From: Candidatus Latescibacterota bacterium
Lineage (GTDB): Bacteria; Latescibacterota; UBA2968
Assembly (NCBI GenBank): GCA_022823725.1
Contig: JAJEHL010000011.1
Location: forward strand, 73,107-137,106
Length of the DNA stretch: 64,000 nt
Reading direction: 5' to 3'
The translations under genes were made by a program, and so were the position numbers. This document shows, in pieces, positions 2,224-63,131 of the stretch. The stretch's first letter is position 1, and each line of letters begins with the position of its first letter. The notes beneath the pieces are model-generated. The model had not been told where the DNA came from and made no database searches. It saw nothing but the letters and a program-made list of their open reading frames with translations.

Positions 2224-2356
2224 TGCAAACCTCCTTGAAAATTCCCCAACGGGAATGGTATCTGTGAATATCTCTAAATAAAATATATCACAATGCCTAA
2301 TGGTGCAATGCAATTATACAATTTTATACAACAATCATACAATTTTATACAATTCT

Positions 2357-2587
2357 ACGCGATGTGTGACTTCAAAATCGCCACAGAATAATGCCAACAA
2401 ACAGATATAAGAAAAGCCTGCCCCCCGTATGAAAGCACTACGGGGCTGGCTCTGCATGATTTTGAGCAGGGGTCAAAACCACTGGATTGCGGCTAACACC
2501 CTGCCGCAATGACGGCTCTAAAATCCTTGTTTTGCTGAACACTGATTGCTTGTTTTTTTCACCATTATCCTAAAGTCACACATGACG
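2357..2587. mobile_element. MITE copy 1 (non-autonomous element with terminal inverted repeats and a 9-bp target-site duplication)
   Basis: Termini are ACGCGATGTGTGACTT...AAGTCACACATGACG. It is flanked by a perfect 9-bp direct repeat TACAATTCT at 2348-2356 and 2588-2596. The interior carries a GCCCCCCGTA...TACGGGGC hairpin, a CCTGC...GCAGG hairpin and a REP-like hairpin CTGGATTGCGGCTAACACCCTGCCGCAATGACGG. Three further copies are in this window. Confidence 0.65.
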
Positions 2588-2601
2588 TACAATTCTGTCT
2601 T

Positions 2602-12569: not shown

Positions 12570-12714
12570 ATGACAATCAAAACCTCTGGATCGTGGCTAA
12601 CATCATACCGCGATGACGGCGCTATGGATAGGCTTACACGATGACAACCAAAACCTCTGGATCGCGGCTTTAAGCATACCGCGATGACGGATACGGGCGA
12701 GGCATGCCTCGCCC
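12570..12714. repeat. REP-like hairpin array (2 units) plus a 20-bp GC palindrome
   Basis: Two units of GATGACAAYCAAAACCTCTGGATCG(C/T)GGCT-loop-ACCGCGATGACGG, followed by GGGCGAGGCATGCCTCGCCC at 12695-12714. Confidence 0.7.
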
Positions 12715-12731
12715 CTACATTGATGATAAGA

Positions 12732-14486: not shown

Positions 14487-14525
14487 AAAAATCCCATTTC
14501 TCAGCTTTTAGCGGTCAACAGTCAA

Positions 14526-14569
14526 CAAAACCTCCTGGATCGCGGCTTTAATCATGCCGCGATGACAAT
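14526..14569. repeat. REP-like hairpin unit
   Basis: AAAACCTCCTGGATCGCGGCTTTAATCATGCCGCGATGACAATC. Confidence 0.6.
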
Positions 14570-16749: not shown

Positions 16750-17085
16750 AAGACTATTATGTACTTTAAGTCTGTCATCTCATTTTGAACCCGCCAATAA
16801 TATTTTTGTCATTACCCGTGAAAACCGCGAGATTCGATCCACCATCAGGGCATACATGGCCAGTGGCACGGACAAATGACATCTGCACGGTTGCACTGAT
16901 AGCGCAGTTATCCATCATCTGTAGGGTATTATTCTGGTGGGTTACAAAAATCATGTTACTCTCAACTATATATGCGAAATAGAACTGAATGGTGCAGAAG
17001 ATATATCGGGGATACAGTAAAGTCAAGTGGGTTTTTTTGTGTTAGAGATAAATACACCAAAAGCATCAGTCAAACAAAAATACAA

Positions 17086-17352
17086 CTACCTCTCCATCAT
17101 TTCAAACGATAACTTTGGGCGGTAACCAAGAGCCTCCAACATGGACCGCGCATCTTCCCAGGTCAAGCCAAAAGCCGCAACATCTGAAACGCCCAACTTC
17201 GCAACAATATCGCGAATCAGCGGTAAATCTCTGTCATCAAATTCACCTTCCATCATCGCATCTTCAGCCCAGGACACAAGTGACTCAAGCGAGAGTTGTC
17301 CGTTGAGATAAAGTTTTAAGCGATCAGCCAAAACATCTCGCGTAATATTCAT
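17086..17352 (-). CDS. hypothetical small protein (88 aa)
   Basis: ORF MNITRDVLADRLKLYLNGQLSLESLVSWAEDAMMEGEF... has no recognisable family. It lies between the bidirectional terminator and MITE copy 2. Confidence 0.4.
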   Translation of the reverse strand: MNITRDVLADRLKLYLNGQLSLESLVSWAEDAMMEGEFDDRDLPLIRDIVAKLGVSDVAAFGLTWEDARSMLEALGYRPKLSFEMMER

Positions 17353-17374
17353 GATTGATCCTCTATCTGTTGAA

Positions 17375-17584
17375 CGCGATGTGTGACTTCAAAATCGCCA
17401 CAGAATAATGCCGACAAACATAGATAAGAAAAGCCTGCCCCTGCATGATTTTGAGCAGGGGTCAAAACCACTGGATTGCGGCTAACACCCTGCCGCAATG
17501 ACGGCTCTAAAATCCTTGTTTTGCTGACTGCTAACCACTGATTGCTCATTTTTTTCTTCATTATTCTAAAGTCACACATGACGT
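17375..17584. mobile_element. MITE copy 2
   Basis: Same terminal inverted repeats as copy 1 (CGCGATGTGTGACTT...AAGTCACACATGACGT). A perfect 9-bp target-site duplication TCTGTTGAA lies at 17366-17374 and 17585-17593. Relative to copy 1 it has an internal deletion of the CCCCGTA...TACGGGG hairpin. Confidence 0.65.
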
Positions 17585-17607
17585 TCTGTTGAATTTCAAC
17601 TTACATC

Positions 17608-17762
17608 CTGATGTTACGCATGTCTGGGGTTTTTGTCATGCTGAGCGGAGTGGAACGGAGCCGAAGCATCCCTTCCACCTGCGTTAGTAGGAGATTCTTC
17701 GACTCCGCTGCGCTTCGCTCAGAATGACAGGCACATGATATTGTGCCTATGCGTAACATCAG
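17608..17762. repeat. long nested inverted repeat (foldback) element
   Basis: Outer arms CTGATGTTACGCAT / ATGCGTAACATCAG form a perfect 14-bp pair. Inside are nested arms GTCATGCTGAGCG / CGCTCAGAATGAC and GGAGCCGAAG / CTTCGACTCC, plus a 7-bp hairpin AGGCACA-TGATAT-TGTGCCT. Folded, it is a stem of roughly 150 nt. Confidence 0.5.
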
Positions 17763-17784
17763 TTATATCCACACGATCAGCCTT

Positions 17785-18591
17785 TTATCTGCGTTCATCT
17801 GCGCCATCTGCGGATGCTTTTCGATGAAACATAAGATCGGCAAACGCGCCCGTCACCTTACTACCCGTATTATCTGAATCGGACATAAGATACACGCGCA
17901 CAACCTCTGCGGGTTCTTCATCGGGATAAAATCGTTTGAAATCCCGGTAAAAATTGCGCGACTCTCCAACCCATTGATTTACATTTTGATCCCCGCTCTC
18001 GGCAACAATGCGGTACCACTTAAACTTGAAAAATCCCAGAATAGACGTCACTTGTGTCAGCGAAGTCTCTTCGGGTATGGTCCGCGTCCAGAGATAGGCA
18101 ATTTCCCGCAACTTCCCTTTGTTATTGAGAACAGAAATACCGATCTTCGCTGCAAAATCATCGCCCGATTTCTTAATTTTCCCTTTGTGATCCGCTGTAT
18201 CGCTATCATCAATCGTATTGCTCACCCGCCAGCGCCATGAGATATGCTGATACTCAGCCGCAGATATGAGATCATACTGCCCCTGCGCCTGTTTGCGGAC
18301 ATCCTTCCCAAACCCCCTGGGCGGGCGGTCACAACGCTTGATCCAATCCTGACTGCGATCAATAGACAACGCCGTGCCATTTTTTGTCGGCACCTGCCAG
18401 AAAAGCGCAGCCGCATGATCGCTGTGAATCGCAAACACCCCATCTCGATGTTGCCCAGTAACATTCTCGCCGCAATCGTCCCAATCGCGTCGAAGCCAAT
18501 CGCTCCCCATATCCACGGCAACGCGATCCTGCGCTTGTACAACACCTGAAAAAACAAAAAAGCCTATCAAAAAAATACTAATGCGAATCAT
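17785..18591 (-). CDS. secreted hypothetical protein
   Basis: Signal peptide MIRISIFLIGFFVFSGVVQAQD. No confident family assignment. Confidence 0.5.
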   Translation of the reverse strand: MIRISIFLIGFFVFSGVVQAQDRVAVDMGSDWLRRDWDDCGENVTGQHRDGVFAIHSDHAAALFWQVPTKNGTALSIDRSQDWIKRCDRPPRGFGKDVRKQAQGQYDLISAAEYQHISWRWRVSNTIDDSDTADHKGKIKKSGDDFAAKIGISVLNNKGKLREIAYLWTRTIPEETSLTQVTSILGFFKFKWYRIVAESGDQNVNQWVGESRNFYRDFKRFYPDEEPAEVVRVYLMSDSDNTGSKVTGAFADLMFHRKASADGADERR

Positions 18592-18634
18592 AATCTACCT
18601 TTTGTTGAAATATTGAAAACTAATTAAAACCGAT

Positions 18635-18896
18635 ACGCGATGTGTGACTTCAAATCCGCCACATAGTAATACCGATAAACAGGGATAAGAAAAGCCTGCC
18701 CCCCGTATGAAAGCACTACGGGGCTGGCTCTGCATGATTTTGAGCAGGGGGCAAAACCACTGGATTGCGGCTAAGCATGCCCCTGCATGATTTAAGCAGG
18801 GGACCCTGCCGCAATGACGGCTCTAAAATCCTTGTTTCGCTGACTGCTGACCACTGATTGCTTGTTTTCTTGACCATTATTCTAAAGTCACACATG
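18635..18896. mobile_element. MITE copy 3 (carries an extra REP-like insertion; right terminus degraded)
   Basis: The left TIR ACGCGATGTGTGACTT is intact. The right end is AAGTCACACATG followed by TCTA instead of ACGT. The interior contains an additional GCATGCCCCTGCATGATTTAAGCAGGGGACCCTGCCGCAATGACGG module. Confidence 0.6.
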
Positions 18897-19095
18897 TCTA
18901 TTGTTTCAGTGTGAATCAAATTCACACCTGTTGTGGAAACACCACATGCAAGCGCGGTTTTAGCGGGGATTTTATTCATTATACGCACAAATGCAATTAT
19001 TGTACCAATAAAAAAAGCGCGACGGGAAAAAAACCGCCGCGCTTATGTGTTTAAACGGCAAAGTGGGGCGAGGCATGCCTCGCCCCTACAATACA

Positions 19096-25809: not shown

Positions 25810-25909
25810 AAGTTCCAAAAACTAAAAATGTTTGCGTGACATTTGCACCATTTCGTTTTATTATTTTATTGCAACCAAATTATCCGCGACAACCTTCAAG
25901 GAGAATTTC

Positions 25910-28768
25910 ATGCGTGCATTATTTATAACTTTTTTTCTTCTGTGGAGCACTTGCTCGGTCATAGCTCAGGATCTCGGTAGCTTGACTGGAAAAGTGGAAG
26001 ATGAAACGGGAGAAGCATTATTCGCAGCCAATGTCATAGTCAAAGGACCGGCCATTGAAGGCACCCGGGGCGCAATCACCAACGACCGGGGAGACTATCG
26101 CATCGACCGCTTGCCGCCGGGCATTTACGAAATCACCATCAGTTATATCGGATATGAAACCATGGTTACAACTGGCGTAGAAATCCGCGCTGGCGAAAGT
26201 ATGACGCGAGATTTCAAGTTGACCGCTGTAGCCCTCATTGGTCAACAGGTCGTGGTATCGGCATCGCGCAAACAGGAAAAAGCCCTGGACGCGCCCGCTT
26301 CAATTGCAACGATCGAAGCAGCCGAAATCAGAGATCGAGGCGTCCTGTCGCCGACCGAGCATATCAAAGCCCTGCCCGGTGTAGATTTTTCCAAAACGGG
26401 CATCTCACAAAGCAACGTGGTCGTTCGCGGATTCAACAATGTATTTTCCGGCGCATTGCTCACACTCGTTGACAATCGCATAGCCCGCGTCCCTTCCCTG
26501 CGTTTCAATGCCTTTGACATGATCCCCGTTACCGGTGACGACATCGAGCGCATTGAAGTGGTATTAGGACCCGGATCCGCGCTTTACGGTCCCAACACCT
26601 CCAGTGGCGTGATGCACATTATCACCCGCTCGCCATTTGGATCAGAAGGCAATACAATTTCCATATCTGGCGGCCAGCGCAGTGTGCGGAGATTATCACT
26701 GCGGCACGCCAGCAGCCTCAACAACAAGATCGGGATCAAAGTCTCAGGTGTGCATAGTTCAGCCCATGACTGGGAGTACATCGATCCTCTGGAAGTAGAA
26801 GCGCGCGGTTTTAATCCACGCGATTACAACTCAAAAAAGACATTGGGAGAACTGAGACTCGATTTTCGACCAACAGATGACCTGACAATCATAGGCTCAA
26901 CGGGTTATACAAAAACAAGCGGTATTGAATTGACGGGTTTGGGCGCGGGCCAGGCAAAAGACTGGACCTATAATTTTTATCAAGGCCGCCTGCTCTATCG
27001 CGAGTGGTTTGCACAAATTTTCTACAACACGAGCAATGCAGGTCAAACGAGAATGATCGCACCCAACGACCCAATTGTAGATAATTCATATTTGATGGTC
27101 ATGCAATTGCAGCACAGTGCCAATTTGGGACAAAAACAACACTTTGCTTATGGTGCTGATGTACTGCGAACCCGACCCGTGACAGGGGGCACAATAAATG
27201 GCATACATGAAGACATTGATAACATCAATGAATACGGGATCTATTTGCAAAGTGAAACCAGCCTGAGCGATCAAATCGAGCTGGTATTGGCCGGGCGCAT
27301 CGACAAACACAGTCACATTGAAGACCCGTTTTTCTCACCCCGCGCAGCGCTGGTCATTAAACCCAGACCGCTCAACACCCTGCGATTGACGTATAACCGC
27401 GCATTTAGCACGCCTTCGACCACCAACTTATTTTTGGACCGGATCGGCCTCCCCGATCCCTTTGGGTTCGGGGCATTGCAATCGTCATTGGGATTTAATC
27501 CAGCAATTGACGTTCGCGCACAGGGCACTGCCGGTACCGGATTCACATTTCGCAGAGACGACAGTGGCCTACCCATGTATCGAACGCCCTTTGCGCCCAT
27601 AGCGGGCTTGTCAAAAGATCACTACTTCTCTCTGCACAGTCCCCAGGGTACCAATTTGATGTGGGGCGCTGCCAGAGAAATAATAATGGGTATCCTTTTG
27701 GCGGAACTGGAACCTCTCGCAACAGGACTTTTCGTCGATCGGCTTGGGCTACCACAAGAACAAGCGGCTGCGGTAGCCGCACAACTGGTCCGAGACTTTC
27801 CCGGGATCATTCCAGAACAACTGCAGGGCTTGCAAAATACGGCCGGCACACTGAATACAGCAACGGCGAGTTTTGATCCCGAGCCCAGCCTCGCCAATGC
27901 AGTGGCAGACATAAACAAAATCGAATCGACCATCTCAGAAACTTTTGAAGTAGGATACAAAGGCGTCATCAATAACAAACTCATTCTGGCAGCCGATGTC
28001 TATCTAAGCAGAAAAAGAAATTTCACCAGCCCGTTGCGGATTGTAACACCCAGTGTATTTCTCGACTCCGGTCCCTTGAACGAGGCTCTGTTAAACGGAA
28101 TTACCGAGAACTTGAAAGACCCTGCCAACGCGAGTCTCGCAATTGCCATCGGTCTTTTAGATCAGCTCAATCTGCCCGATTTGGGCCTGGTCGGCAACGG
28201 CAATGGCACAGGCATAGATGAATTGACGCAGGTATTTGTAGCCAACGCCGCGGGGATCCCCTTTGGCACCATATCTGCCGAACAGGCATCAGATCCCACC
28301 GCAGTGATGGTCGCATATCGCAATTTTGGTCGCATAACGCTCTACGGTGCCGACCTATCGTTTGCGTATTATCCAAACGAAATATGGACTTTTACCGGCA
28401 ATTACTCCTATGTCAGCGATGACTTTTTCCCCAACTTAGACAACATCGGCGACATTGCCCTCAATGCACCCAAGCACAAATTTAACATCGGAATTGATTG
28501 TCAACTGCCCAATACACCACTTACTATTAGTGGGAAATTGAGCTATCGCGGTGGTTTTCCCATGCGATCGGGTGTATATATCGGCGATGTAGATGCTTAT
28601 ACTGTTTTGGACCTGAATACCGCATATCAGTTGCCTATTTCAAATGATCGCTTCAAGGTCACCTGGAATGTGGAAGTCAGCAACGTGTTAAACCAGGAAT
28701 ATCGATCATTTGTCGGTGCGCCATTTATTGGACGCCTAATCTTAACTGGCCTGAATATTCGGTTCTAA
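25910..28768 (+). CDS. TonB-dependent receptor with a CarboxypepD_reg-like N-domain (paralog 1)
   Basis: The ATG at 25910 is preceded by an AAGGAG RBS. Signal peptide MRALFITFFLLWSTCSVIAQD. CarboxypepD_reg segment (LTGKVEDETGEALFAANVIVKG...GIYEITISYIGYE). Plug domain. C-terminal ...GLNIRF. Confidence 0.8.
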   Translation: MRALFITFFLLWSTCSVIAQDLGSLTGKVEDETGEALFAANVIVKGPAIEGTRGAITNDRGDYRIDRLPPGIYEITISYIGYETMVTTGVEIRAGESMTRDFKLTAVALIGQQVVVSASRKQEKALDAPASIATIEAAEIRDRGVLSPTEHIKALPGVDFSKTGISQSNVVVRGFNNVFSGALLTLVDNRIARVPSLRFNAFDMIPVTGDDIERIEVVLGPGSALYGPNTSSGVMHIITRSPFGSEGNTISISGGQRSVRRLSLRHASSLNNKIGIKVSGVHSSAHDWEYIDPLEVEARGFNPRDYNSKKTLGELRLDFRPTDDLTIIGSTGYTKTSGIELTGLGAGQAKDWTYNFYQGRLLYREWFAQIFYNTSNAGQTRMIAPNDPIVDNSYLMVMQLQHSANLGQKQHFAYGADVLRTRPVTGGTINGIHEDIDNINEYGIYLQSETSLSDQIELVLAGRIDKHSHIEDPFFSPRAALVIKPRPLNTLRLTYNRAFSTPSTTNLFLDRIGLPDPFGFGALQSSLGFNPAIDVRAQGTAGTGFTFRRDDSGLPMYRTPFAPIAGLSKDHYFSLHSPQGTNLMWGAAREIIMGILLAELEPLATGLFVDRLGLPQEQAAAVAAQLVRDFPGIIPEQLQGLQNTAGTLNTATASFDPEPSLANAVADINKIESTISETFEVGYKGVINNKLILAADVYLSRKRNFTSPLRIVTPSVFLDSGPLNEALLNGITENLKDPANASLAIAIGLLDQLNLPDLGLVGNGNGTGIDELTQVFVANAAGIPFGTISAEQASDPTAVMVAYRNFGRITLYGADLSFAYYPNEIWTFTGNYSYVSDDFFPNLDNIGDIALNAPKHKFNIGIDCQLPNTPLTISGKLSYRGGFPMRSGVYIGDVDAYTVLDLNTAYQLPISNDRFKVTWNVEVSNVLNQEYRSFVGAPFIGRLILTGLNIRF

Positions 28769-28823: not shown

Positions 28824-31685
28824 ATGCGTGTATTGTATATCCTTGCTTTCGTACTGTGGAATGCTTACTCGGTCGTAGCTCAGGACTTCGGCAGTTTGAC
28901 GGGCAAAGTGAAAACCGAAGACGGAGAAATCTTATTCGGTGCCAATATCATAGTCAAAGGACCTGCCATTGAAGGCACCCGGGGCGCAATCACCAACGAC
29001 CGGGGAGACTATCGCATCGACCGCTTGCCGCCGGGCATTTACGAAATCACCATCAGTTATATCGGATATGAATCCATCGTTACAACCGGCGTAGAAATCC
29101 GCGCGGGCGAAAGTATGACGCGAGATTTCAGACTGACCGCTGTAACCCTCATTGGTCAACAAGTCGTGGTATCGGCATCGCGCAAACAAGAAAAAGCCCT
29201 GGACGCGCCCGCCTCAATTGCAACAGTCGATGCGTCTGAAATCAGAAATCGAGAAGTCTTGACAATGAGCGAATACGTCAAGACTCTGCCCGGCGTTGAC
29301 TATGCTCAAACAGGCATATCGCAAGGCAGCATGGTAGTTCGCGGATTCAACAAAGTATTTTCTGGCGCACTGCTCACACTCGTTGACAACCGCATTGCCC
29401 GAATCCCGTCGCTACGCTTGAATGCCTATGATTTGATCCCCCTTACCAGTGACGACATTGAGCGCATTGAAGTGGTTTTAGGACCCGGATCTGCGCTTTA
29501 CGGTCCCAACAGCGCCAATGGCGTGATGCACATTATCACCCGCTCGCCATTTGGATCGGAAGGCAATACAATTTCCATATCTGGCGGCCAGCGCAGTGTG
29601 CGAAAATTATCACTGCGGCACGCCAGCAGCCTCAACAACAAGATCGGGATCAAAGTTTCGGGTGGATATGTTGCAACCCATGACTGGGAATATGTCGATT
29701 CCCTGGAAGTGGAAGCGCGCGGTTTTAATCCACGCGATTATAGCACAGAAAGGACAAGTGGGGAGTTCAGACTCGATTTTCGACCAACAGACAACCTGAC
29801 ATTGATAGGGTCGGTGGGCTATTCAAAAATGAGCGGCCTTCAACAGACGGATTTGGGCGCGGGCCAGGCGAAAGACTGGACCTATAATTTTTATCAAGGC
29901 CGCCTGCTGTATCGCGGATGGTTCGCACAGATCTTCTACAACACCAGTAATGCAGGCGACACGGAACTGATCACAGCCGGTGACCCAATTGTAGATAATT
30001 CACATTTGATGGTCTCGCAACTGCAACACAATGCCAGTTTGGGACAGAAACAACACTTTGCTTATGGTGCTGACGTACTGCTCACCCGGCCCAAAACACA
30101 GGGCACAGTACACGGCATGCATGAAGACAATGACGACATCGATGAATACGGGATTTACCTGCAAAGCGAAACCAATCTGAGCGATCAAATCGATCTGATA
30201 TTGGCCGGGCGTATCGACAAACACAGCCATATAGGAGATCCGTTTTTTTCTCCCCGCGCAGCACTGGTCATCAAACCCACGCCGGAAAACACCCTGCGAT
30301 TGACGTATAACCGCGCATTTAGCACACCCTTAACCCCCGACATGTTTGTAGATCGGGTCGGCGTTCCCGACATCTTTATGCTCGGCACAAGTTTCAGCCC
30401 GGTATTGGGATTTAGTCCAGCAATTGACCTTCGCGCCCAGGGCACCGCCGGTACCGGATTCACATTTCGCAGAGACGACAATGGGCTACCCATGTTTCGG
30501 ACGGCCTTTGCGCCCATAGCGGGCTTGTCAAAAGATCACTACTTCTCTCTGCACGATCCCCAGGTCACCAATTTGATGTGGGGTGCTGCCAGAGAGGCAA
30601 TACTGGACGGCTTTCTATCTGAACTGGAACCTCTCGCAACAGAGCTTATCGCAGGCGGGCTTGGACTACCACCAGATCAAGCGGTTGCACTGATCGAAAA
30701 ACTCGTCGAGATCTTTCCCGGAACTATCCCAGAACAACTGCCGGGCTTGCAAAATACGGCTGCGATACTGAATGCAGAAACGCAGGGTTTCGATCCCATA
30801 CCCGACCTCGCCAATGCAGTGACAGACATAGAAAAACTCGGACCCACCATAACAGAAACCTTTGAAGTGGGATACAAAGGCATCATCAACAACAAACTCA
30901 TCCTGGCAGCCGATGTCTATCAAACCAGAATCAAAAATTTCGTCAGCCCGTTGCGGATTGAAACGCCCAACGTATTTCTCGCCCCCGGTCCCTTAAGCGA
31001 AGCCCTGACAGACGCGCTTACCGAGAACCTGAAAGACCCTGCCAATGCAAGCCTCGCAATTGCCCTTGTTTTTTTAGATCAACTCAACGAGCCAGAGTTG
31101 GGATTGGTTGGCAATGGCAATGGAACAGGCGTGGATGAATTGACGGAGCTATTCGTAGCCAACGCCGCGCTGATCCCATTTGGCACCATAGTGCCCGAAC
31201 AGGCAGCAGACCCCAATGCCGTGATAGTCGCACCTCGCAATTTTGGCAATATAACGCTCTACGGTGCCGACCTGTCGTTTGCGTATTATCCAAACGAAAT
31301 ATGGGCTTTTACCGGCAATTACTCATACGTCAGCAAGGACTTTTTCCCCAATTTAGACAACATCGGCGACATTGCCCTCAATGCTCCCCGGCACAAATTT
31401 AACATCGGTATCGATTGCCAACTGCCCAATATACCGCTCACGATCCGAGGGAAATTGCGTTACCGCGATGGCTTTCCAATGCAATCGGGTATATATGTCG
31501 GCAATGTAGATGCTCATACTGTTCTGGATTTGAATATCACCTATCAATTGCCTCTTTCAAATGATCGCTTCAACACCACCCTGAGTTTGGATGCCAGCAA
31601 TTTGCTAAGCCAGGAATATCAATCACTTGTCGGTGCGCCCTGGATCGGACGCCTGATTACAAGCAGCTTGCACGTTCGATTCTAA
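28824..31685 (+). CDS. TonB-dependent receptor (paralog 2, tandem duplicate of 25910..28768)
   Basis: About 75% identical to paralog 1 over the full length. Has an AAGGAGGG RBS. C-terminal ...SLHVRF. Confidence 0.8.
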   Translation: MRVLYILAFVLWNAYSVVAQDFGSLTGKVKTEDGEILFGANIIVKGPAIEGTRGAITNDRGDYRIDRLPPGIYEITISYIGYESIVTTGVEIRAGESMTRDFRLTAVTLIGQQVVVSASRKQEKALDAPASIATVDASEIRNREVLTMSEYVKTLPGVDYAQTGISQGSMVVRGFNKVFSGALLTLVDNRIARIPSLRLNAYDLIPLTSDDIERIEVVLGPGSALYGPNSANGVMHIITRSPFGSEGNTISISGGQRSVRKLSLRHASSLNNKIGIKVSGGYVATHDWEYVDSLEVEARGFNPRDYSTERTSGEFRLDFRPTDNLTLIGSVGYSKMSGLQQTDLGAGQAKDWTYNFYQGRLLYRGWFAQIFYNTSNAGDTELITAGDPIVDNSHLMVSQLQHNASLGQKQHFAYGADVLLTRPKTQGTVHGMHEDNDDIDEYGIYLQSETNLSDQIDLILAGRIDKHSHIGDPFFSPRAALVIKPTPENTLRLTYNRAFSTPLTPDMFVDRVGVPDIFMLGTSFSPVLGFSPAIDLRAQGTAGTGFTFRRDDNGLPMFRTAFAPIAGLSKDHYFSLHDPQVTNLMWGAAREAILDGFLSELEPLATELIAGGLGLPPDQAVALIEKLVEIFPGTIPEQLPGLQNTAAILNAETQGFDPIPDLANAVTDIEKLGPTITETFEVGYKGIINNKLILAADVYQTRIKNFVSPLRIETPNVFLAPGPLSEALTDALTENLKDPANASLAIALVFLDQLNEPELGLVGNGNGTGVDELTELFVANAALIPFGTIVPEQAADPNAVIVAPRNFGNITLYGADLSFAYYPNEIWAFTGNYSYVSKDFFPNLDNIGDIALNAPRHKFNIGIDCQLPNIPLTIRGKLRYRDGFPMQSGIYVGNVDAHTVLDLNITYQLPLSNDRFNTTLSLDASNLLSQEYQSLVGAPWIGRLITSSLHVRF

Positions 31686-31743: not shown

Positions 31744-31786
31744 AAAACCTCTGGATCGCGGCTCAAAACCATGCCGCGATGACGGC
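31744..31786. repeat. REP-like hairpin unit
   Basis: AAAACCTCTGGATCGCGGCTCAAAACCATGCCGCGATGACGG. Confidence 0.6.
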
Positions 31787-31835
31787 TCTGTTGATAGGAT
31801 TGAGTTAAAACTTATTTGACAGATCATCAAGCGTT

Positions 31836-34746: not shown

Positions 34747-36285
34747 TTACCGCGTATTCCTGACCAGATCCAAATCCGTACTGAACAAATCGCGTATATC
34801 GTTAATACCCAGCGCGACCATCGCCATTCTATCAACCCCCAGACCCCAGGCAATAACCGGAACATCCACACCCAGAGGTCGTGTAAGCTCAGGCCGAAAA
34901 AGACCCGCACCACCAAGCTCAATCCATCCCAGAACGGGATGCTTCGCCTGAAGTTCGACCGAAGGCTCGGTAAAAGGAAAATAATCGGGCACATAGCGCA
35001 CATCTTCGGACTGCGCGATCTCAAGCGCGAACAGCTTGAGCAAACCGAGCAAACTGCGAAAATTTATTTCCTCACCCAAAACAATACCCTCAGCCTGAAA
35101 AAAATCTGCCGCATGCGTGGCATCGACATCATCCGGACGAAAACAACGCGCAAGCGCGAAATATTTACCCGGGATATTTGGCTTTGAAGCGAGCGTACGC
35201 CCCGAAAGCGCAGTCCCCTGACTCCGCAAAATAAGGCGGCGCGACTGCTCGGGATTAAATTCATATTGCCAACCGCGCGAACCAGTATCGCCCCCGTTCT
35301 GATGCGCCTCAGCCACCCTCGAAAAATAGGGTTCCTCTGCCTCTCGGGATTGCGTCGGCTCCGTAACATAATACGCATCGTGAATATTGCGCGCCGCGTG
35401 GAACTGCGGCATAAAAAGGGCATCCATATTCCAGAACTCGGTCTCCACCAGAGAACCTTTCATCTCTTCAAAACCAAGCACCATCAACCGGCGCCGCACA
35501 TTATCGAGATACGCCCGATAGGGATGGTGCTTTCCAATAAGCACGCGCGGCGGCTTAATCGACAAATCATATCGGCGAAAAGACGCGCCCTGCCATGTAC
35601 CCTTCTGAATCATTTCCGGCGTAAGCCGAGAAACTTCATCACCCGTAAGATTGGCTTTGACAACCTCCACAAGCACGCGCCGTCCTTCTTCAGTAAGACA
35701 ATAAACCCGCTCCGTGCGCTCGTCCAAACGAACAGGTGCCCTGCCCCCGCCGCGCTTGCGGGCATTGGCTTCGATATACTGGACAACATCACCGGGAAAA
35801 TTATCAATCTCAATTCCGGTATCGGAAAATTTGTCAAAAAATTCTGGCATAAGTCGATCAATAAAAAAAGAAGCCCGATCTGCATCGACAATAACAACAG
35901 CCCCCTTATCCAGATCGATAATCCCATCCTTTTTCAAACCGCCAAAAGCACTGCCCCAGGCACCTCTGTCAAAACGCTCGTCAGCCTGCAAATCTTGAAT
36001 CCCAACACGCTCTGCATTCGCCCGGGTCAAAAGTGCCGTCTCTGGCGTCGCGCCCTTTGCTACAAAATCCCGTCCCACTTCCGTAAGCGAAACCGTTGCA
36101 CGCGTATTTTCTCCAGTAACTTCGAGCAACTGCTTGGAAATCAGCCACTCGACCGCGCGCCGAACCTGTCCTTCGCCAATGCCCGCCCCCTTTTGAAGTT
36201 GTGCATCGGACTGCTCGGCACTGGCATTATTCTCATATACACGCAAAATGCGAATTTCGAGCGCATGTAAAGATGCGAGATCCAT
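34747..36285 (-). CDS. pheS: phenylalanine--tRNA ligase alpha subunit, archaeal/eukaryotic type
   Basis: Start at the ATG 36283-36285 (MDLASLHALEIRIL...) with a GGAG RBS; the track start at 36318 is a TTG inside the T-box terminator. About 510 aa with an extended N-terminal tRNA-binding region. Class II catalytic core ...FRPDDVDATHAADFFQAEG...GWIELGGAGLFRPE...AWGLGVDRMAM. Confidence 0.7.
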   Translation of the reverse strand: MDLASLHALEIRILRVYENNASAEQSDAQLQKGAGIGEGQVRRAVEWLISKQLLEVTGENTRATVSLTEVGRDFVAKGATPETALLTRANAERVGIQDLQADERFDRGAWGSAFGGLKKDGIIDLDKGAVVIVDADRASFFIDRLMPEFFDKFSDTGIEIDNFPGDVVQYIEANARKRGGGRAPVRLDERTERVYCLTEEGRRVLVEVVKANLTGDEVSRLTPEMIQKGTWQGASFRRYDLSIKPPRVLIGKHHPYRAYLDNVRRRLMVLGFEEMKGSLVETEFWNMDALFMPQFHAARNIHDAYYVTEPTQSREAEEPYFSRVAEAHQNGGDTGSRGWQYEFNPEQSRRLILRSQGTALSGRTLASKPNIPGKYFALARCFRPDDVDATHAADFFQAEGIVLGEEINFRSLLGLLKLFALEIAQSEDVRYVPDYFPFTEPSVELQAKHPVLGWIELGGAGLFRPELTRPLGVDVPVIAWGLGVDRMAMVALGINDIRDLFSTDLDLVRNTR

Positions 36286-36310
36286 CAAGAGAAACTCCAA
36301 TGTTAGTATT

Positions 36311-36586
36311 AAAAACAAAAAGCCCCTTCGTCATCATAGGGACGAAAGAGCTTCTCCGCGGTACCACCCTATTTGCGCTTAAAAGCACCACTCAGTAGAT
36401 GGCCGTCACCATCCTGTCCATTATCGGCGGACCCACCGGCTCGGCTTAATAGGAAACTGTCTTTCCATTCGGCTTTGCAGCTCGGGAGGGAACTTCGCCT
36501 GTGCATCCTGCAGATGTGCTTTCAGCCCAGGACACATCCTCTCTGTGCAGTTGGGAACAGGCTACTTTTCTCCGTCATTGCTTTAA
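36311..36586 (-). promoter_or_regulatory. T-box riboswitch leader (Phe specifier candidate) upstream of pheS
   Basis: The minus strand contains CAAAUAGGGUGGUACCGCGGAG, a 15/17 match to the T-box consensus AAUUAGGGUGGNACCGCG. It is followed by the terminator CUUUCGUCCCUAUGAUGACGAAGGGGCUUUUUGUUUUU. Upstream is an AGAGAG (GA/K-turn-like) motif and a GAAGUUCCC segment holding a UUC Phe codon. A promoter TTGACA-N17-TATGTT lies at 36593-36622. Confidence 0.6.
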
Positions 36587-36637
36587 GGGCAAAACATAGA
36601 AATTTGCGCTACAAGTGTCAAGCCGAAAGTAGCAAAT

Positions 36638-38872
36638 CTATCCGTTAATCGTTTTTCCAAAAACCTGGACGAACATAAGAAAATCGGTAAAGTCAACAGA
36701 ACCATTCCCATCGATATCGAATTGGGACTCGGACGATCCAAACGCCCCCACAAACAGGAGAAAATCGGCAAAGTCGATTGTGCCATCTCTGTTAAAATCC
36801 GATTTGGCTTCCACAGAAAGCGGCTGGACAACGCCAGAAATCGTCAGCATAAGCTTTGCGCGATCCGGATCATTGCTCAAAATATTGACACTCCCCGAAA
36901 ACTCGCCCTCCATGGGTCTGGGAAACGTAATCGTAATCGTCGCAGAACTATCCGGAGACAGTGTAAACATCACAGGATCAAACGTCAGACCCGGCACATC
37001 GCTCTCAATACCCGTAATCTCCAAATCCGCGGTACCCGTATTCGTAATCGTGAAAGTCTGTTGAGCCGTCTTTTCGGCATCAATACTCCCGAAATCAATT
37101 GCGGGTGCCCCCACAACCAGCACTGGCGCAGGCGCCGCCTGCACAATCACAGAAACAGACAACGTCTGTGTTCCACTATTCGTGTCATTACTCGAAATCG
37201 TAATATTCCCCGAAAAAGTACCTTCCACAGAACTCGGAAACGTCACCGTCACCGTCTGCGAATCGTCAGGTTCTAATGTGAACATCGTAGTATCAAACGT
37301 CAAACCCGACACATCACTCTCAATACCCGTAATCTCCAAATCCGCGGTACCCGTATTCCTGATCGTAATCGTCCGCTGAACCGTTTGAGCAAACGCAACA
37401 GTACCAAAATCAACTGCCGTTTGCTGAACAGCAATCACTGGCACAGGTCGCGGCTGCACGGTCACAGAAACAGACAACGTCTGTGTTCCACTATTCGTGT
37501 CATTACTCGAAATATTGATATTACCCGAAAACGTACCCTCCACAGAACTCGGAAACGTAATCGTCACCATCTGTGAACTGCCAGGTTCCACTGTGAACAT
37601 CACAGGATCAAACTTCAGACCTGCCACATCACCCTCACCTTTAATACCTGTAATCATCAAAGGTGCAGTACCAGTGTTCTCAATCGTAATTGTCTGTTCA
37701 CCTGTTTGACCTGCGACAATAGGATCGAAATTAACTGCCGTTTGCTGAACAGCAATCGCTGGCACAGGTCGCGGCTGCACGGTCACAGAAACAGACAACG
37801 TCTGTGTTCCACTATTCGTGTCATCACTCGAAATCGTGATATTACCCGAAAACGTACCCGCTGTCGAACTCGGAAACGTAATCGTAACTGTCTGCGAACC
37901 ATTGGGAGCCAACGTGAACGTAGAAGGCGTAAACATCAAACCCGGCACATCACTCTCAATACCCGTAATCTCCAAATCCGCGGTACCCGCATTCCTGATC
38001 GTAATCGTCTGCTGAACCGTTTGAGCAAACGCAACAGTACCAAAATTAACTGCTGTTTGCTGAACAGCGATCACCGGTACAGGGGGCGGCTGCACAATCA
38101 CAGAAACGGATAATATCTGGGTTGCACGATCCGGGTCATTACTCGAAATCGTGATATTACCCGAAAACGTACCCGCTGTCGAACTCGGAAACGTAATCGT
38201 CACCATCTGTGAACTGTTAGGTGCCAGTGTGAACATCGTAGTATCAAACTTCAACCCCGGCACATCGCTCTCGATACCCGTAATCTCAAGGGAACCTGTG
38301 CCTGTATTCGTAATCGTAATCGTCTGTTGACCTGTTTGACCTGCGACAATCGTGCCAAAATCAACTGCCGTTTGCTGCACAGCGATCGTCGGCACACTCG
38401 CGGGTATTTGCGCCAACAGTTCAGTAACCTTGTCTTTCACCTGAGTAACAGAACTTGAACTCAGACCGCCTATGACGGGTAATGCAGTCCCATTGGGACG
38501 AACCACAACGAAGTTCTCATACGAGGCCGGAGCAGAACTACTCGCATTTAGAAGCAGGGGAAAGGTGATGCCTCCGTTCCTGCGAAAACCCTCAACCTGA
38601 GACTGACTACCACCCCAGGTATCGAGACCGAGCATCTCTACATTGGGGTTTGCTTTATAATCTTGCCATAATCCTTCGAGTCGCGGACCCGCCGCTTGAC
38701 AGGTCGGTCAGCCATGCCCAAAGACCGCAAGTATGAGTACTTTGCCACGATAGTCAGAGGCACTATATGTATTGCCATCGAGGCCCCGTAGAGAAAAATT
38801 AACCGTTTGTGCAGAGGCAGCCCCAACGAGCAAAAGCAGAATCATCGGGATGGACAATAGGTATTGGCGCAT
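36638..38872 (-). CDS. selenoprotein candidate: secreted TlpA-like redoxin (U-P-T-C motif) fused to five Ig-like (ASH/choice-of-anchor-D-like) repeats and a C-terminal dockerin
   Basis: The ATG at 38870-38872 (AAGGA RBS) opens MRQYLLSIPMILLLLVGAASAQTVNFSLRGLDGNTYSASDYRGKVLILAVFGHG. An in-frame TGA at 38708-38710 follows, then PTCQAAGPRLEGLWQDYKANPNVEMLGLDTWGG..., continuing the ORF-track entry 36638..38635 in the same frame. The UGA falls exactly at the first Cys of the redoxin F-x-x-x-W-C-x-x-C motif. The body is five repeats of about 105 aa (IAVQQTAV(D/N)FG...LEITGIESDV.GL.F...VTITFPSS..GTFSGNITISSND). The C-terminus has two dockerin-type calcium-binding segments (DFNRDGTIDFADF and DIDGNGSVDFTDF). 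Confidence 0.6.
38680..38700 (-). promoter_or_regulatory. bacterial SECIS-like hairpin 8 nt downstream of the in-frame UGA
   Basis: mRNA ...UGA CCGACCUG UCAAGCGG CGGGU CCGCGAC...: the stem GUC(AA)GCGG / CCGCGAC has a G/U-containing apical loop CGGGU. Placement is compatible with bSECIS. Confidence 0.4.
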
Positions 38873-38902: not shown

Positions 38903-39107
38903 ATGACAACCAAAACCTTCTGGATCGCGGCTAACACCCTGCCGCGATGACAGCATAAAGGCTAAGACAAAAGCAAAACCTCTGGATCGCGGCTCAACAT
39001 CATAGCCTGCCCCCGTATGCTTTAAGCAGGGGCCGCGATGACGGCATAAAGGCTAAAACAAAAGCAAAACCCCTGGATTGCGGCTTTAAGCAGGCCGCAA
39101 TGACGGC
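38903..39107. repeat. REP-like hairpin array (3 units)
   Basis: Three units of ATGACRRCMTAAAGGCTAAGACAAAAGCAAAACCYCTGGATYGCGGCT-loop-GCCGCRATGACGG. Loops differ in length (9 to about 30 nt); one loop embeds a CCCCGTA/TTAAGCAGGGG module. Confidence 0.7.
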
Positions 39108-39180
39108 TTTTCTGTACTAAAGATATCAACGCTTCAATTTAACAGAAGTTTCTCCACAGGTCAACCACAAGGAGTGAGCG

Positions 39181-41391: not shown

Positions 41392-42573
41392 CTAAAAAAT
41401 ATCTCCCTGATACAACTGCTGTAAAAACTCCGCGACAGGCAAAACATCCACACCATCAAAATGATAGCTCCGCTTGCCCGTATAAACCCCCACCATGCGA
41501 TCAACGCGAATCTGTGGGGATAGACTCATATCGCGCATCTGACGTTCCCAACGCCTATCCCACCGATCAGACAACTTAACTTCGAGACACACCACATGCG
41601 CCCGGGAAGATACCGTTCGCTTGCGCGTTTCAATAACAAAATCGATTTCTCCTCCCATAGCCGTGCGATAAAATGCAATAGGACGGTATTTTTCTCGCGT
41701 GTGATTGTACACGCGCAACTCGTGATAGATCAACGTCTCCAAAGCCGTTCCCAACCAGACGCGATCAAGCGGGTCCTCGAGCAATCCCGCGGCTGCACGC
41801 GCAACTCCCGGATCGAACCAGTAGAATTTGGGGCGGGTCTGCTCTCGAACTTTAATATTCGGGCGATACGCCAAAAGTTTGTGCCCCAAAAGCGTATCTT
41901 CCAGAATCGAAAAATAGATATCGATACTGCTGCGAGAAACCGCTGCGTCTCGCGCAAGACTTTGCGCGTTAACCTGCTGGGCATTGATCTGACCTGCAAT
42001 GCTTAAAAATCGGAGAAAAGGAGACAGGTTCCGCACCACCCCCTCTTCTTTAATCTCTTCTCTAATATAGGTATTGACATAAGCATCGAGAATATCGCGG
42101 GCATACGTGCGGTCTAATTGCACCGTGGGCAACAAACCGTATTGTAGTGAAAAATCGAGATCAAAAAGCGCACCGAGTTCTGCACTGCTAAACGATTCCA
42201 TATGGCGAGTAATTGCGCGACCAGCAAGCAAATTAGTACCACCTCGACGCAATTTACGCGCAGAAGAACCGCAAAGCACGAATCGCCACCGTTTATTTTC
42301 AATCAAACGATGAACCTCATTTAGCAAAGCGGGAATTTTTTGAACTTCATCCAGGACTACCCAGGTCTGCTCTGGACGATTGCCGATCAGAGCCTCGAGG
42401 TGATGGGGCGACTGCGAAAGCTCAAGATAAAGTGAAGAATCGAGCAAATCGAGATAAATCGCATCGGGCAAAACCTGGCGCAAATAGGTGCTTTTGCCTG
42501 TTGAGCGCGGACCAAAAAGAAAAAACGAGCGATCGGGTAATGCCAGAAGGCGTTTTAATAAGGGATTTTCCAT
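41392..42573 (-). CDS. AAA+ ATPase with a DUF4143-like C-terminal domain
   Basis: Walker A GPRSTGKST. Walker B VVLDEVQ. The C-terminal half is typical of the ATPase/DUF4143 (archaeal-ATPase-like) family. Confidence 0.75.
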   Translation of the reverse strand: MENPLLKRLLALPDRSFFLFGPRSTGKSTYLRQVLPDAIYLDLLDSSLYLELSQSPHHLEALIGNRPEQTWVVLDEVQKIPALLNEVHRLIENKRWRFVLCGSSARKLRRGGTNLLAGRAITRHMESFSSAELGALFDLDFSLQYGLLPTVQLDRTYARDILDAYVNTYIREEIKEEGVVRNLSPFLRFLSIAGQINAQQVNAQSLARDAAVSRSSIDIYFSILEDTLLGHKLLAYRPNIKVREQTRPKFYWFDPGVARAAAGLLEDPLDRVWLGTALETLIYHELRVYNHTREKYRPIAFYRTAMGGEIDFVIETRKRTVSSRAHVVCLEVKLSDRWDRRWERQMRDMSLSPQIRVDRMVGVYTGKRSYHFDGVDVLPVAEFLQQLYQGDIF

Positions 42574-42639
42574 ATTGCAAATTTACAAAACTATTGTAAA
42601 AAAACAATGCAAATTTACAAAACTATTGTAAATTTGCAA
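42574..42639. promoter_or_regulatory. tandem dyad-symmetric 23-nt motif abutting the ATPase start codon
   Basis: GCAAATTTACAAAACTATTGTAAA occurs twice, at 42578-42601 and 42611-42634. The second copy extends to a 31-bp dyad TGCAAATTTACAA-AACTA-TTGTAAATTTGCA. The ATG (minus strand) is at 42571-42573, with no obvious SD sequence. Confidence 0.45.
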
Positions 42640-42656
42640 TCTCAGAAAATAAAAAA

Positions 42657-42867
42657 AACGCGATGTGTAACTTCAAAATCGCCACAGAATAATGCCGACA
42701 AACGGGTATAAGAAAAGCCTGCCCCTGCATGATTTTGAGCAGGGGTCAAAACCACTGGATTGCGGCTAACTCCCTGCCGCAATGACGGCTCTAAAATCCT
42801 TATTTTGCTAACTGCTGACCACTGATTGCTCATTTTTTTCATCATTATTCTAAAGTCACACATGACG
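42657..42867. mobile_element. MITE copy 4
   Basis: ACGCGATGTGTAACTT...AAGTCACACATGACGT. The flanking A-rich 8-9 bp direct repeat TAAAAAAA(A) is at 42649-42656 and 42867-42874. Confidence 0.6.
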
Positions 42868-42887
42868 TAAAAAAATATGGACGATGA

Positions 42888-50246: not shown

Positions 50247-50867
50247 ATGAAAACACTTTACTACGTCGCCGACCCCATGTGTTCCTGGTGCTGGGGATTT
50301 CAGCCAGTGCTCGAAAAAGTAAAAGAAGCTATACCCGAAGAGTTATCACCCGTATATATCATGGGAGGATTGGCACGCGACACCGATGACCTCATGCCCG
50401 ACGCGATGCAGGCGCATATCCAGCGCGCCTGGCGCGAAGTAGCAGCCATAACAGGCGCGAGTTTCAACTGGGACTTTTGGGAAAAATGCAAACCGAGGCG
50501 ATGCACCTATCCATCTTGCAGGTCATTTTATGCGGCTCAAAATCAAGGGGCTGGAACAGCGATGTACGAAGCGATTCAACGCGCCTATTATCGGGAAGCA
50601 CGCAATCCATCGGATGCAGACGTCCTCGTCGCATTGGCGGGTGAAATCGGATTAGACACAGCGCGTTTTGCATGCGATCTATCCTCACCCGAAATCGAAC
50701 AAAAGATGCAAGATGGATTTAACATCAGGCGATCAATGAATGCCAACCAGTTTCCAAGCCTCGTCATAAGAAACAACGCGTCCGTCACCTTCATCACCCG
50801 GGGCTATAACGACGCGGAAAACGTGTTGACGCGCTTGCGAGCTATAATCTCTGGATTGCGGCTTTAA
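50247..50867 (+). CDS. DsbA-family thioredoxin-fold protein (2-hydroxychromene-2-carboxylate isomerase/DsbA-like)
   Basis: MKTLYYVADPMCSWCWGF with a CSWC CxxC motif. The last ~8 codons (...IISGLRL*) are encoded by a REP-like unit. Confidence 0.7.
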   Translation: MKTLYYVADPMCSWCWGFQPVLEKVKEAIPEELSPVYIMGGLARDTDDLMPDAMQAHIQRAWREVAAITGASFNWDFWEKCKPRRCTYPSCRSFYAAQNQGAGTAMYEAIQRAYYREARNPSDADVLVALAGEIGLDTARFACDLSSPEIEQKMQDGFNIRRSMNANQFPSLVIRNNASVTFITRGYNDAENVLTRLRAIISGLRL

Positions 50868-50930
50868 GCACGCCGCAATGACAAACCAAAACCTGCTGGA
50901 TCGCGGCTCAACATCATGCCACGATGACGG
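50848..50930. repeat. REP-like hairpin array (2 units)
   Basis: CTGGATTGCGGCTTTAAGCACGCCGCAATGAC...CTGGATCGCGGCTCAACATCATGCCACGATGACGG. Confidence 0.65.
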
Positions 50931-50991
50931 CTCTGTTGATGGGATTGATCATGTATAAGGTTGATGAACGCTGATAGCTTGTTTTGCTAAC

Positions 50992-52137: not shown

Positions 52138-52178
52138 TAGCTGACCTGTAGCGATCAGCACACAGGTGAAGCAGAACA

Positions 52179-52339
52179 AAAAACCTTCTGGATCGCGGCT
52201 AACATCCTGCCGCGATGACAGCATAAAGGCTAAGACAAAAGCTAAACCTCTGGATCGCGGCTTAAGCATGCCCCCCGTATAAAAACACTACGGGGCAGGC
52301 TCTGCATGATTTAAGCAGGGGACCTGCCGCGATGACGGC
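52179..52339. repeat. REP-like composite array
   Basis: Two CTGGATCGCGGCT...GCCGCGATGAC(A/G)G units. The second loop carries the GCCCCCCGTATAAAAACACTACGGGGCAGGC and CTGCATGATTTAAGCAGGGG modules. Confidence 0.65.
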
Positions 52340-54891: not shown

Positions 54892-54925
54892 AAAGCGCGA
54901 ATAGACGTCCCCCGCCCCACCACCC

Positions 54926-54968
54926 AAAACCTCTGGATTGCGGCTAACATCCTGCCGCAATGACGGCT
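54926..54968. repeat. REP-like hairpin unit
   Basis: AAAACCTCTGGATTGCGGCTAACATCCTGCCGCAATGACGG. Confidence 0.6.
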
Positions 54969-63007: not shown

Positions 63008-63032
63008 GCTATTAGCAATCAGTGATCAGCTA

Positions 63033-63091
63033 AAAAATCCTGGATCGCGGCTAACATCCTGCCGCGATGACGGGCGAGGCATGCCTCGCCC
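63033..63091. repeat. REP-like unit fused to a 20-bp GC palindrome
   Basis: CTGGATCGCGGCTAACATCCTGCCGCGATGACGG followed by GCGAGGCATGCCTCGCCC. Confidence 0.65.
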
Positions 63092-63131
63092 CTACGGTTG
63101 TTCACACTTCACACTTCCTAATTCACACTTC

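Follow-up and report, generated by a model that had tools for sequence, protein, structure and literature searches.

A 64-kb stretch of the genome of a Candidatus Latescibacterota bacterium (contig JAJEHL010000011.1, positions 73,107 to 137,106; hereafter the window, meaning the whole stretch of DNA that was analysed) carries four related intergenic elements, all on the + strand, which are very probably miniature inverted-repeat transposable elements (MITEs) moved in trans by a DDE transposase of the IS982 family, with small hairpins resembling repetitive extragenic palindromic (REP) sequences nested inside them. That these are non-autonomous elements inserted by a transposase had been proposed in an earlier reading of the window made from its letters alone (the sequence-only reading), and is now borne out by target duplications, by empty sites in related genomes and by a full-length insertion sequence (IS) that possesses the same termini.

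The relatives on which much of this account draws were obtained in one scan of a species-representative genome collection with the degenerate terminus ACGYSATGTGTGACTTYARA, which yielded at least 115 listed loci (denoted here by L numbers). Counts concerning the family, its hairpins B and D and their polarity cover the window and the 115 loci listed, equivalent to ~1 Mb of sequence. Nearly all of the listed loci are from metagenome-assembled genomes (MAGs) labelled Candidatus Latescibacterota or uncultured Latescibacteria. The window's own genome lies outside the scanned collection, the closest loci among the matches listed being 94-97% identical to it; exact protein matches put the window on scaffold_19 (328,563 bp) of ENA ERZ23491381. 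Two contigs filed under other groups, L045 (JAPPIG010000035.1, filed as Poribacteria) and L107 (CAZCYQ010000119.1, filed as Rhodothermaceae), are 90-95% identical to Latescibacterota chromosomes and are probably binning errors in public MAGs. L079 (Pirellulaceae), considered as a carrier from outside the Latescibacterota, was rejected as a chance match.

MITE copies and their IS982-family parent

The four copies are located at 2357-2588 (copy 1, 232 bp), 17374-17584 (copy 2, 211 bp), 18635-18896 (copy 3, 262 bp) and 42658-42868 (copy 4, 211 bp), within one base of the positions previously assigned to them, and their reality is upheld by alignment, by the distribution of the terminal motif and by a profile search. 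All four have the common termini ACGCGATGTGTGACTT...AAGTCACACATGACGT, which constitute genuine terminal inverted repeats (TIRs), as had been supposed: the left end, ACGCGATGTGTGACTT, matches the reverse complement of the right end, ACGTCATGTGTGACTT, at 14 of 16 positions (ACG-CG-ATGTGTGACTT versus ACG-TC-ATGTGTGACTT). When at most one mismatch is permitted, the 11-mer ATGTGTGACTT is found at eight sites in the window, and these are exactly both ends of each copy; in shuffled sequences the mean count was 1.03 and none of 100 shuffles reached eight. A profile built from the copies and searched with nhmmer recovers all four at full length, with E-values of 1e-75 to 1e-85. Each copy is based on a basic MITE of 182 bp. 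Copies 2 and 4, which share 95% identity, consist of this form plus a hairpin termed module C, copy 1 has a 7-nt internal deletion together with a module C in which a further module, A, is nested, and copy 3 contains the same C with A inside it, C(A), as well as, within the loop of hairpin B, a second module of C type. The right end of copy 3 is truncated (it terminates ...CACACATG, the last 4 bases having been lost) and this copy is without a duplication; its ortholog at L040:738-948 retains the full end ...CATGACGT. All four copies are bounded on either side by - strand genes, copy 2 being situated 21 bp upstream of the ATG of an 88-aa open reading frame (ORF) at 17086-17352 (-).

The only ORFs of the copies are frames of 73-90 aa beginning MCDFRIM..., which start at an ATG within the right terminal repeat and are found on the - strand at 17349-17579, at 42642-42863 and in part of 18716-18988. 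Because neither 28 nor 29 nt, the lengths of the module indels, is divisible by three, the indels shift these frames, which are therefore not genes, and the earlier dismissal of the frames as spurious was correct. A tblastn search of the 64-kb window with an IS982-family transposase returned nothing at E ≤ 1e-3, in keeping with the previous statement that no transposase is present there.

With the element boundaries fixed at ACG...CGT, as in all relatives, copy 1 is flanked by the 8-bp direct repeat ACAATTCT (2349-2356 and 2589-2596) and copy 2 by the 8-bp direct repeat TCTGTTGA (17366-17373 and 17585-17592). The sequence-only reading had quoted perfect 9-mers at these two copies. These are literally present, TACAATTCT at 2348-2356 and 2588-2596 and TCTGTTGAA at 17366-17374 and 17585-17593, but the duplications are 8 and not 9 bp in length because one base of each 9-mer, an A or a T, belongs to the end of the element itself. 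Copy 4, to which an A-rich 8-9-mer had been ascribed, has seven A on each side (42651-42657 and 42869-42875), and its duplication is ambiguous.

The same reading had allowed that target duplications might be lacking elsewhere. Across the family, a flanking direct repeat of at least 7 nt is present at 54 of 75 paired elements, compared with 0 of 1,224 in the offset control. The duplications measure 7 bp in 14 elements, 8 bp in 18, 9 bp in 18, 10 bp in three and 11 bp in one. Their A+T content is 77%, against 50% overall, which confirms the suggested preference for AT-rich targets, and 61 of 63 short elements are intergenic. Pre-insertion sites were also reconstructed and then searched against the other loci, and four clean empty sites with a single-copy target were recovered: L005/L114 (7 bp), L103/window 16819-17104 (8 bp), L032/L098 (9 bp) and L105/L091 (11 bp). 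These empty alleles are direct evidence of transposition and of a variable stagger. The fixed 9-bp duplication postulated earlier is consequently untenable, as the lengths span 7-11 bp with consistent termini and the empty sites confirm 7, 8, 9 and 11 bp. A further candidate, L087, was tried as an empty site for copy 4; the MITE is absent from it but the site is rearranged, and it was not used.

Copy 2 has an ortholog with an identical duplication at L093:150-360, whilst copy 4 has orthologs at L113:310-491 and L075:5806-6044. When L113:1-310 is compared with window 42540-42657, the L113 ortholog has kept the right flank of the MITE and has an unrelated left flank, suggestive of a rearrangement that broke at the MITE. 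At 42576-42638, between copy 4 and the start of the ORF at 41392-42573 (-), an exact 25-nt sequence (TGCAAATTTACAAAACTATTGTAAA) is present as two direct repeats 32 bp apart, which also form a 31-nt palindrome, and a comparable pair of ATACAATTTTATACAA repeats adjoins copy 1 at ~2320-2356. These pairs may be operator or promoter repeats, with copies 4 and 1 inserted at their edge.

A full-length IS carrying the TIRs of the MITEs, a search for which the sequence-only reading had recommended, was found in related Latescibacterota MAGs. Several loci carry two termini 1,028 bp apart, and L008:4630-5677 is a 1,048-bp element with the ends ACGTGATGTGTGACTT...AAGTCACACATCGCGT (ACG...CGT) and an 8-bp duplication, TATTTTGT, that encodes a single ORF (312-326 aa). 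The parent ORF matches the NCBIfam model NF033520 (IS982 family transposase) with 165 bits against a cut-off of 130 (E = 2e-48), as well as the Pfam domain DDE_Tnp_1_3 (PF13612). With annotated IS982-like transposases such as those of ISAba9 and ISPsma1 its product shares 34-36% identity across 97-100% of its length, the figures for the ISAba9 enzyme being 36% and 97% (E = 3e-54). The terminal repeats of ISAba9, ACCCCAATCTCAACTT and ACGCCAATCTCAACTT, start with AC and have ACTT at the inner end, a layout that is the same in the parent IS. IS1, IS4, IS256 and ISAs1, the families named as possible parents before the transposase was in hand, are rejected, the sole NCBIfam matches being to the IS982 equivalog, above its cut-off, and to a sub-threshold IS5 model (21 bits).

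The listed loci hold eight full-length IS copies and many edge-cut copies, in addition to a 459-bp internal-deletion derivative of the IS (L059:3633-4091). The MAG closest to the window has a 727-bp piece of the IS (L055), which lies where a contig ends. Duplications of the full-length copies are 7, 7, 7, 8, 8 and 9 bp long. The left end of the MITE is identical to the right end of the IS for 22 nt, and the right end of the MITE resembles the left end of the IS over ~20 nt. An intact transposase, P0121, is present on 15 contigs. The 10 places listed in an exact-protein look-up of this transposase represent 10 different public samples, and the window's sample is not among these 10. Many of the IS copies end contigs or occupy contigs of ~1 kb.

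In the proposed mechanism, the transposase of the 1,048-bp IS, whose 16-bp TIRs have the form ACG[C/T][G/C]ATGTGTGACTT, would bind both termini of the MITE and insert it into AT-rich intergenic DNA by means of staggered cuts of varying width, repair of which would leave direct repeats of 7-9 bp and occasionally of 10-11 bp. The ancestral MITE is envisaged as a 182-bp element with ~20 bp at each end in common with the IS and with hairpin B already inside. A working IS982 copy, its transposase acting in trans, would on this scheme reside in the window's own genome.

Nested and free-standing hairpins

Amongst the paired elements the modal length is 182 bp, with 33 of 72 falling in the 180-189-bp bin. 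The window and the 115 loci listed contain 63 paired short elements, which form two subfamilies that have the same termini and unrelated interiors. The window copies (211-262 bp) are longer than the 182-bp form because hairpin modules of 28-29 nt are nested inside them. Alignment of the copies confirmed the three hairpin modules and the indels of whole modules that had been described beforehand. The assumption that the interior is wholly MITE requires revision, however, as two of the three modules are absent from the ancestral MITE and are nested 28-29-nt hairpins, and the third, hairpin B, also exists free-standing.

Hairpin B (CTGGATYGCGGC-loop-GCCGCRATGACGG) belongs to the 182-bp basic MITE, and within the window's MITEs it lies at 17471-17504 (+; CTGGATTGCGGC-loop-GCCGCAATGACGG), 2482-2515, 18760-18820 and 42755-42788. 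Module C, a 29-nt hairpin (AGCCTGCCCCTGCATGATTTTGAGCAGGG) at 17432-17460 (+), interrupts the basic MITE at TAAGAAA^GTCAAAAC. This insert recurs at 42716-44, 2415-71 and 18693-749, the latter two of which also carry the 28-nt module A (CCCGTATGAAAGCACTACGGGGCTGGCT) nested in C, at 2424-2451 (+) and 18702-18729 respectively. The second C-type module of copy 3 (GCATGCCCCTGCATGATTTAAGCAGGGGA) occupies 18775-18803 (+). When the window copies are aligned to 182-bp elements, C, A and the second C are precise 28-29-nt insertions without duplication. The orthologs of copy 4 illustrate three states of a single locus, with no module in L113 (182 bp), C in the window (211 bp) and C plus A in L075 (239 bp). 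Module D, considered below, is also found within MITE copies of other genomes (L063, L039, L115), and modules F, G, H and I are nested elsewhere in other MITE copies of relatives.

A module of 22-23 nt (ACTGGCGTTGTGCCTTCGGCGTG) is located within the 5' arm of hairpin B, both MITE-borne and free, at L044, L048, L100, L039, L115, L071, L029, L032, L038, L103 and L068. Its written strand would form a hairpin, with a loop of TTCG or TTGC, only by admitting several G-T wobbles, and the module is strand-asymmetric. Copy 2 is adjoined by a second, different MITE-like repeat at 17608-17762, in which perfect 14-bp inverted termini (CTGATGTTACGCAT / ATGCGTAACATCAG) enclose a long hairpin, GTCATGCTGAGCGGAG...CTCCGCTGCGCTTCGCTCAGAATGAC, with an RNA fold energy of -56 kcal/mol. 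The repeat gives rise to a spurious ORF at 17601-17759 (...CHSERSAAESKNL...). Copies of this repeat are present in L077, L105, L068, L032, L110 and others, and its core is the interior of subfamily 2 of the IS982 MITEs.

The hairpins are by no means restricted to MITEs. Hairpin B has 17 hits in the 64 kb, of which 13 are free copies, some in tandem, and 75 free B units are present in the ~1 Mb sampled; C, A and D also occur free of MITEs in the window. The free-standing features of the window, all of them on the + strand, include two tandem B units (unit length ~71 bp) at 12570-12690 that are followed by the REP module D at 12695-12718 (GGGCGAGGCATGCCTCGCCCCTAC), a sequence that is repeated identically at 19066-19089 and 63072-63095. 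The number of B units at 12570-12690 is two in the window versus six at the orthologous L005:3485-3900. Single free B hairpins are found at 14519-14568, at 31744-31803 between convergent genes and at 54917-54966 between two + strand genes, and a further one is fused to module D at 63024-63095. Two adjacent free B units lie at 50835-50948. A cluster of three B units at 38904-39110 has a C-type module in the loop of its middle unit (38975-39046), and of the two B units at 52172-52340 the second (52242-52338) holds C(A) within its loop, which reproduces the B(C(A)) arrangement of MITE copy 3.

In 46 distinct free copies of hairpin B, pairing of the 8-bp stem reaches 97.8% and a single position covaries (C-G in 30 copies, U-A in 14), and the loop sequences vary freely. 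The reverse complement of module D reads GTAG-GGGCGAGGCATGCCTCGCCC, that is, GTAG followed by a hairpin on the - strand. A GTAG tetranucleotide plus a hairpin is the canonical REP layout as described (PMC6006769), and module D is, as judged from its sequence, a canonical REP.

These modules are strongly oriented with respect to replication. GC skew is negative throughout the window (-0.05 to -0.23), in which B has 17 hits, every one of them on the + strand. Over the wider sample, in which orthologous copies shared among genomes inflate the polarity counts somewhat, the orientation of free B agrees with the sign of the local skew in 67 copies and disagrees in eight. Counted by locus, at |skew| ≥ 0.05, the ratio is 26:2 (p = 3e-6). 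Module D gives 13:1, and the MITEs at |skew| ≥ 0.05 give 45:9 (p = 7e-7), those that contain B being divided 36:6 and those without B 15:6. Genes flanking B, once B is normalised to +, are arranged '--' in 21 cases, '++' in 19, '-+' in 11 and '+-' in 10; these arrangements are mixed, and the direction of transcription is therefore not the determinant of B orientation. Orientation set by neighbouring genes was ruled out for B and MITEs alike, the sign of the skew being followed instead. Along chromosome OX638329.1 the orientation is predominantly - from ~0.5 to 2.8 Mb and + from 3.4 to 6.1 Mb, and the exceptions include two loci near 1.4 Mb (+) that match the local skew. The GTAG strand of module D is the G-rich strand. 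By the usual rule, the G-rich strand has the sequence of the leading strand and so serves as template for the lagging strand. Y1 enzymes of the IS200/IS605 type act on the lagging-strand template (PMC3333891, PMC6006769).

The hairpins make up a second, smaller-scale layer of repeats, in which C, and A within C, are nested in the MITE, and B, C, A and D belong to REP-like extragenic palindrome families that exist alone, in tandem and mutually nested across the genome. We infer that the modules spread in single-stranded form at the replication fork, by the action of a HUH/Y1 enzyme that is associated with REPs and resembles the REP-associated tyrosine transposases (RAYTs). Spread of single strands at the fork would explain both the missing duplications and the strong replication-strand polarity of the modules. 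A more far-reaching and decidedly tentative proposal is that the 22-29-nt hairpins (B, C, A, D and others in relatives) might be layered ultra-small mobile DNAs, laid down on one replication strand by a Y1/RAYT-like enzyme, inserting free of duplications into the stems and loops of one another and into the MITE, and amplifying in tandem, with the IS982 MITE serving as a vehicle that transports them within the genome and shares their polarity.

Alternative explanations

A number of observations weigh against parts of this account. The full-length IS has been seen only in related MAGs, and the trace of it nearest to the window's genome is the truncated copy in a MAG that is ~97% identical over shared loci. 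Beyond ~20 bp at each end the interior of the MITE is unlike the IS, and this subfamily may therefore have arisen not by internal deletion but by capture of terminal repeats around a REP-containing stretch. Within the window itself, the damaged copy 3 offers no duplication and the A-runs around copy 4 only an ambiguous one. The polarity of the MITEs is not predicted by a symmetric DDE reaction, and could be due to a replisome-linked insertion bias or to selection. Hairpin B is without a GT[AG]G foot, its two strands reading CTGG and CGTC respectively. A tblastn search of the ~1 Mb with IS608 TnpA and E. coli RAYT queries, which is a weak test, detected no Y1/RAYT gene, the best E-value being 0.16. 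Finally, L075 differs from copy 4 at several internal positions even though the 250-bp flanks are >99% identical, and such differences may have arisen by gene conversion between MITE copies.

Some of these features would suit a family of fossils, which spread in an ancestor and became immobile when the window's genome lost its working IS982. No transposase is encoded in the window, copy 3 has decayed, 21 of 75 paired elements are without a duplication of at least 7 nt, and the closest MAG (L093, L075) has copies 2 and 4 at sites identical to those of the window, so that both predate the split. This scenario is nevertheless judged unlikely in view of the clean empty-site polymorphisms between related genomes, in one of which the window supplies the empty allele for the L103 copy, the intact and sequence-identical transposase ORFs in many samples, the IS fragment in the closest MAG (L055) and the 95% identity of copies 2 and 4. 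A reading of the 211-262-bp unit as a structured non-coding RNA, or as a regulatory or terminator element rather than a transposon, is very improbable. Single strands do fold better than shuffles (z = -2.7 and -4.0), but folding is to be expected of any element with inverted repeats and palindromes. Likewise, although all four copies are intergenic with - strand genes either side and the pairing of the B stem is kept, the TIRs are identical to IS termini, target duplications and empty sites are present, and orientation tracks GC skew and not genes. Promoter-like and terminator-like consensus matches are no more frequent on the elements than in shuffles. No Rfam family matched the elements at its gathering score in the search of the window, nor at E ≤ 1 on the MITEs (17300-19000), so that membership of a larger conserved non-coding RNA, which the sequence-only reading had kept in view, receives no support from Rfam.

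The size differences between copies could also be attributed to recombination or gene conversion between MITE variants, combined with slippage at palindromes, the modules themselves being immobile. The location of C at an identical position in the four window copies, L040, L093 and L075 is compatible with this, since a single event in an ancestor, spread afterwards as the MITE transposed, would be enough, as are the internal differences of L075 from copy 4 and the altered left flank of L113, which indicates rearrangement at the MITE. Such an origin is possible, yet C and C(A) are also found in the loops of free B hairpins (38975-39046, 52242-52338), D is found both after B (12695, 63072) and in the MITEs of L063, L039 and L115, and further MITE copies harbour F, G, H and I at different positions. 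The modules are found in several hosts, and therefore at least one true insertion per combination of module and host is needed; moreover, the insertions are without flanking direct repeats that slippage could use. Conversion without module mobility is on balance doubtful. The polarity of B, D and the MITEs might instead stem from selection for a polar signal in the chromosome that is read on one replication strand, for example a motif that binds a protein or organises the chromosome, and not from insertion into single strands. In support of this idea, the DDE-type MITEs are polarised too, more weakly when B is absent, and the density of B hairpins is very high at 17 per 64 kb. DDE insertion-sequence families can, in addition, be replication-polarised via contacts with the sliding clamp (PMC3971601). 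Set against it, no candidate binding protein or motif was identified, the B loops vary freely, and D has the layout of a canonical REP, for which the known partners are Y1 enzymes that work on the template of the lagging strand (PMC3333891, PMC6006769), and a selected polar signal appears to be an improbable source of the bias. MITEs mobilised by an IS982-family transposase, with REP-like hairpins nested inside them, remain the preferred explanation of the four elements.

Window context and related systems

The window also holds several features other than these repeats. A T-box leader (RF00230) at 36335-36587 (-), upstream of the ORF at 34747-36318 (-), scores 108 bits against a gathering score of 93 and is the only Rfam match in the window. 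Within the ORF at 36638-38635 (-), five tandem copies of a ~315-bp repeat, 60-80% identical to one another, extend over 36807-38335, which points to a predicted protein built of repeated 105-aa domains. The adjacent ORFs at 25832-28768 and 28824-31685 (+), of 978 and 953 aa, have ~85% DNA identity over the stretches compared and look like a tandem gene duplication.

The parent IS resembles the known members of the IS982 family (ISAba9, ISPsma1 and IS982 of Lactococcus) in its length of ~1 kb, its single DDE ORF, its match to NF033520, its 16-bp repeats that start with AC and end with ACTT (as in ISAba9) and its duplications of variable length. For the direct repeats of this family, the ISfinder table gives 3-9 bp, whereas duplications of 10-11 bp are encountered here, one 11-bp case being confirmed by an empty site. 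The parent also differs in that it is at most 36% identical to the annotated members (plasmid collection), and it would therefore be a new, unnamed IS, and in that its host belongs to the uncultivated Latescibacterota. The literature searched contains no description of the element, nor of mobile DNA in sponge-associated Latescibacterota, and a search with the terminal-repeat sequence returned only unrelated eukaryotic primer sequences.

A precedent for the MITE is found in Cardinium, in which a non-coding, high-copy MITE of ~240 bp is derived from the co-resident IS982-family element ISCca4 and is maintained by intact parental copies (PMC9769881). Both are short, non-coding, high-copy elements flanked by IS982-family inverted repeats. 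The Latescibacterota element differs in its unrelated sequence and host, its two subfamilies, its nested REP-like hairpins and its replication-polarised copies. The hairpins, in turn, are comparable to REPs, bacterial interspersed mosaic elements (BIMEs) and REP doublets forming hairpins (REPINs), which are associated with RAYT (TnpA-REP) Y1 enzymes (PMC3333891, PMC6006769, PMC3116915). In common with these, B, C, A and D are short, imperfect intergenic palindromes that are present in high copy, singly or in clusters of variable tandem number, and that insert without duplication; module D additionally has GTAG at the hairpin foot, on the lagging-strand template. Unlike them, B, the most abundant module, is without the GT[AG]G foot, its units are arranged head-to-tail and not as inverted doublets, and the modules are nested in each other's stems and loops and in a DDE-type MITE. 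Similar nesting was reportedly described by Elhai et al. in 2008 (Genome Res) in heterocyst-forming cyanobacteria, where hairpin repeats of 20-30 nt are said to insert into one another and into MITEs without duplications. These small dispersed repeats belong to another phylum and have other sequences, and to our knowledge replication-strand polarity is not a reported feature of them.

IS982-derived MITEs and REP/Y1 systems are already known, and current understanding is not overturned by the elements described here; the layered nesting of hairpins together with their strong polarity is more unusual. For annotation, the elements matter in that they produce conserved-looking fake ORFs (MCDFRIM...), break short-read assemblies and mark points of rearrangement. 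In this Latescibacterota lineage, which is associated with sponge metagenomes, the sequences point to an IS982/MITE pair that is active, close relatives being polymorphic for its insertions. The MITEs furnish dated before and after templates to which tiny REP-like hairpins are still being added, and the 26:2 polarity of the hairpins provides a testable signature of single-strand, fork-coupled mobility.

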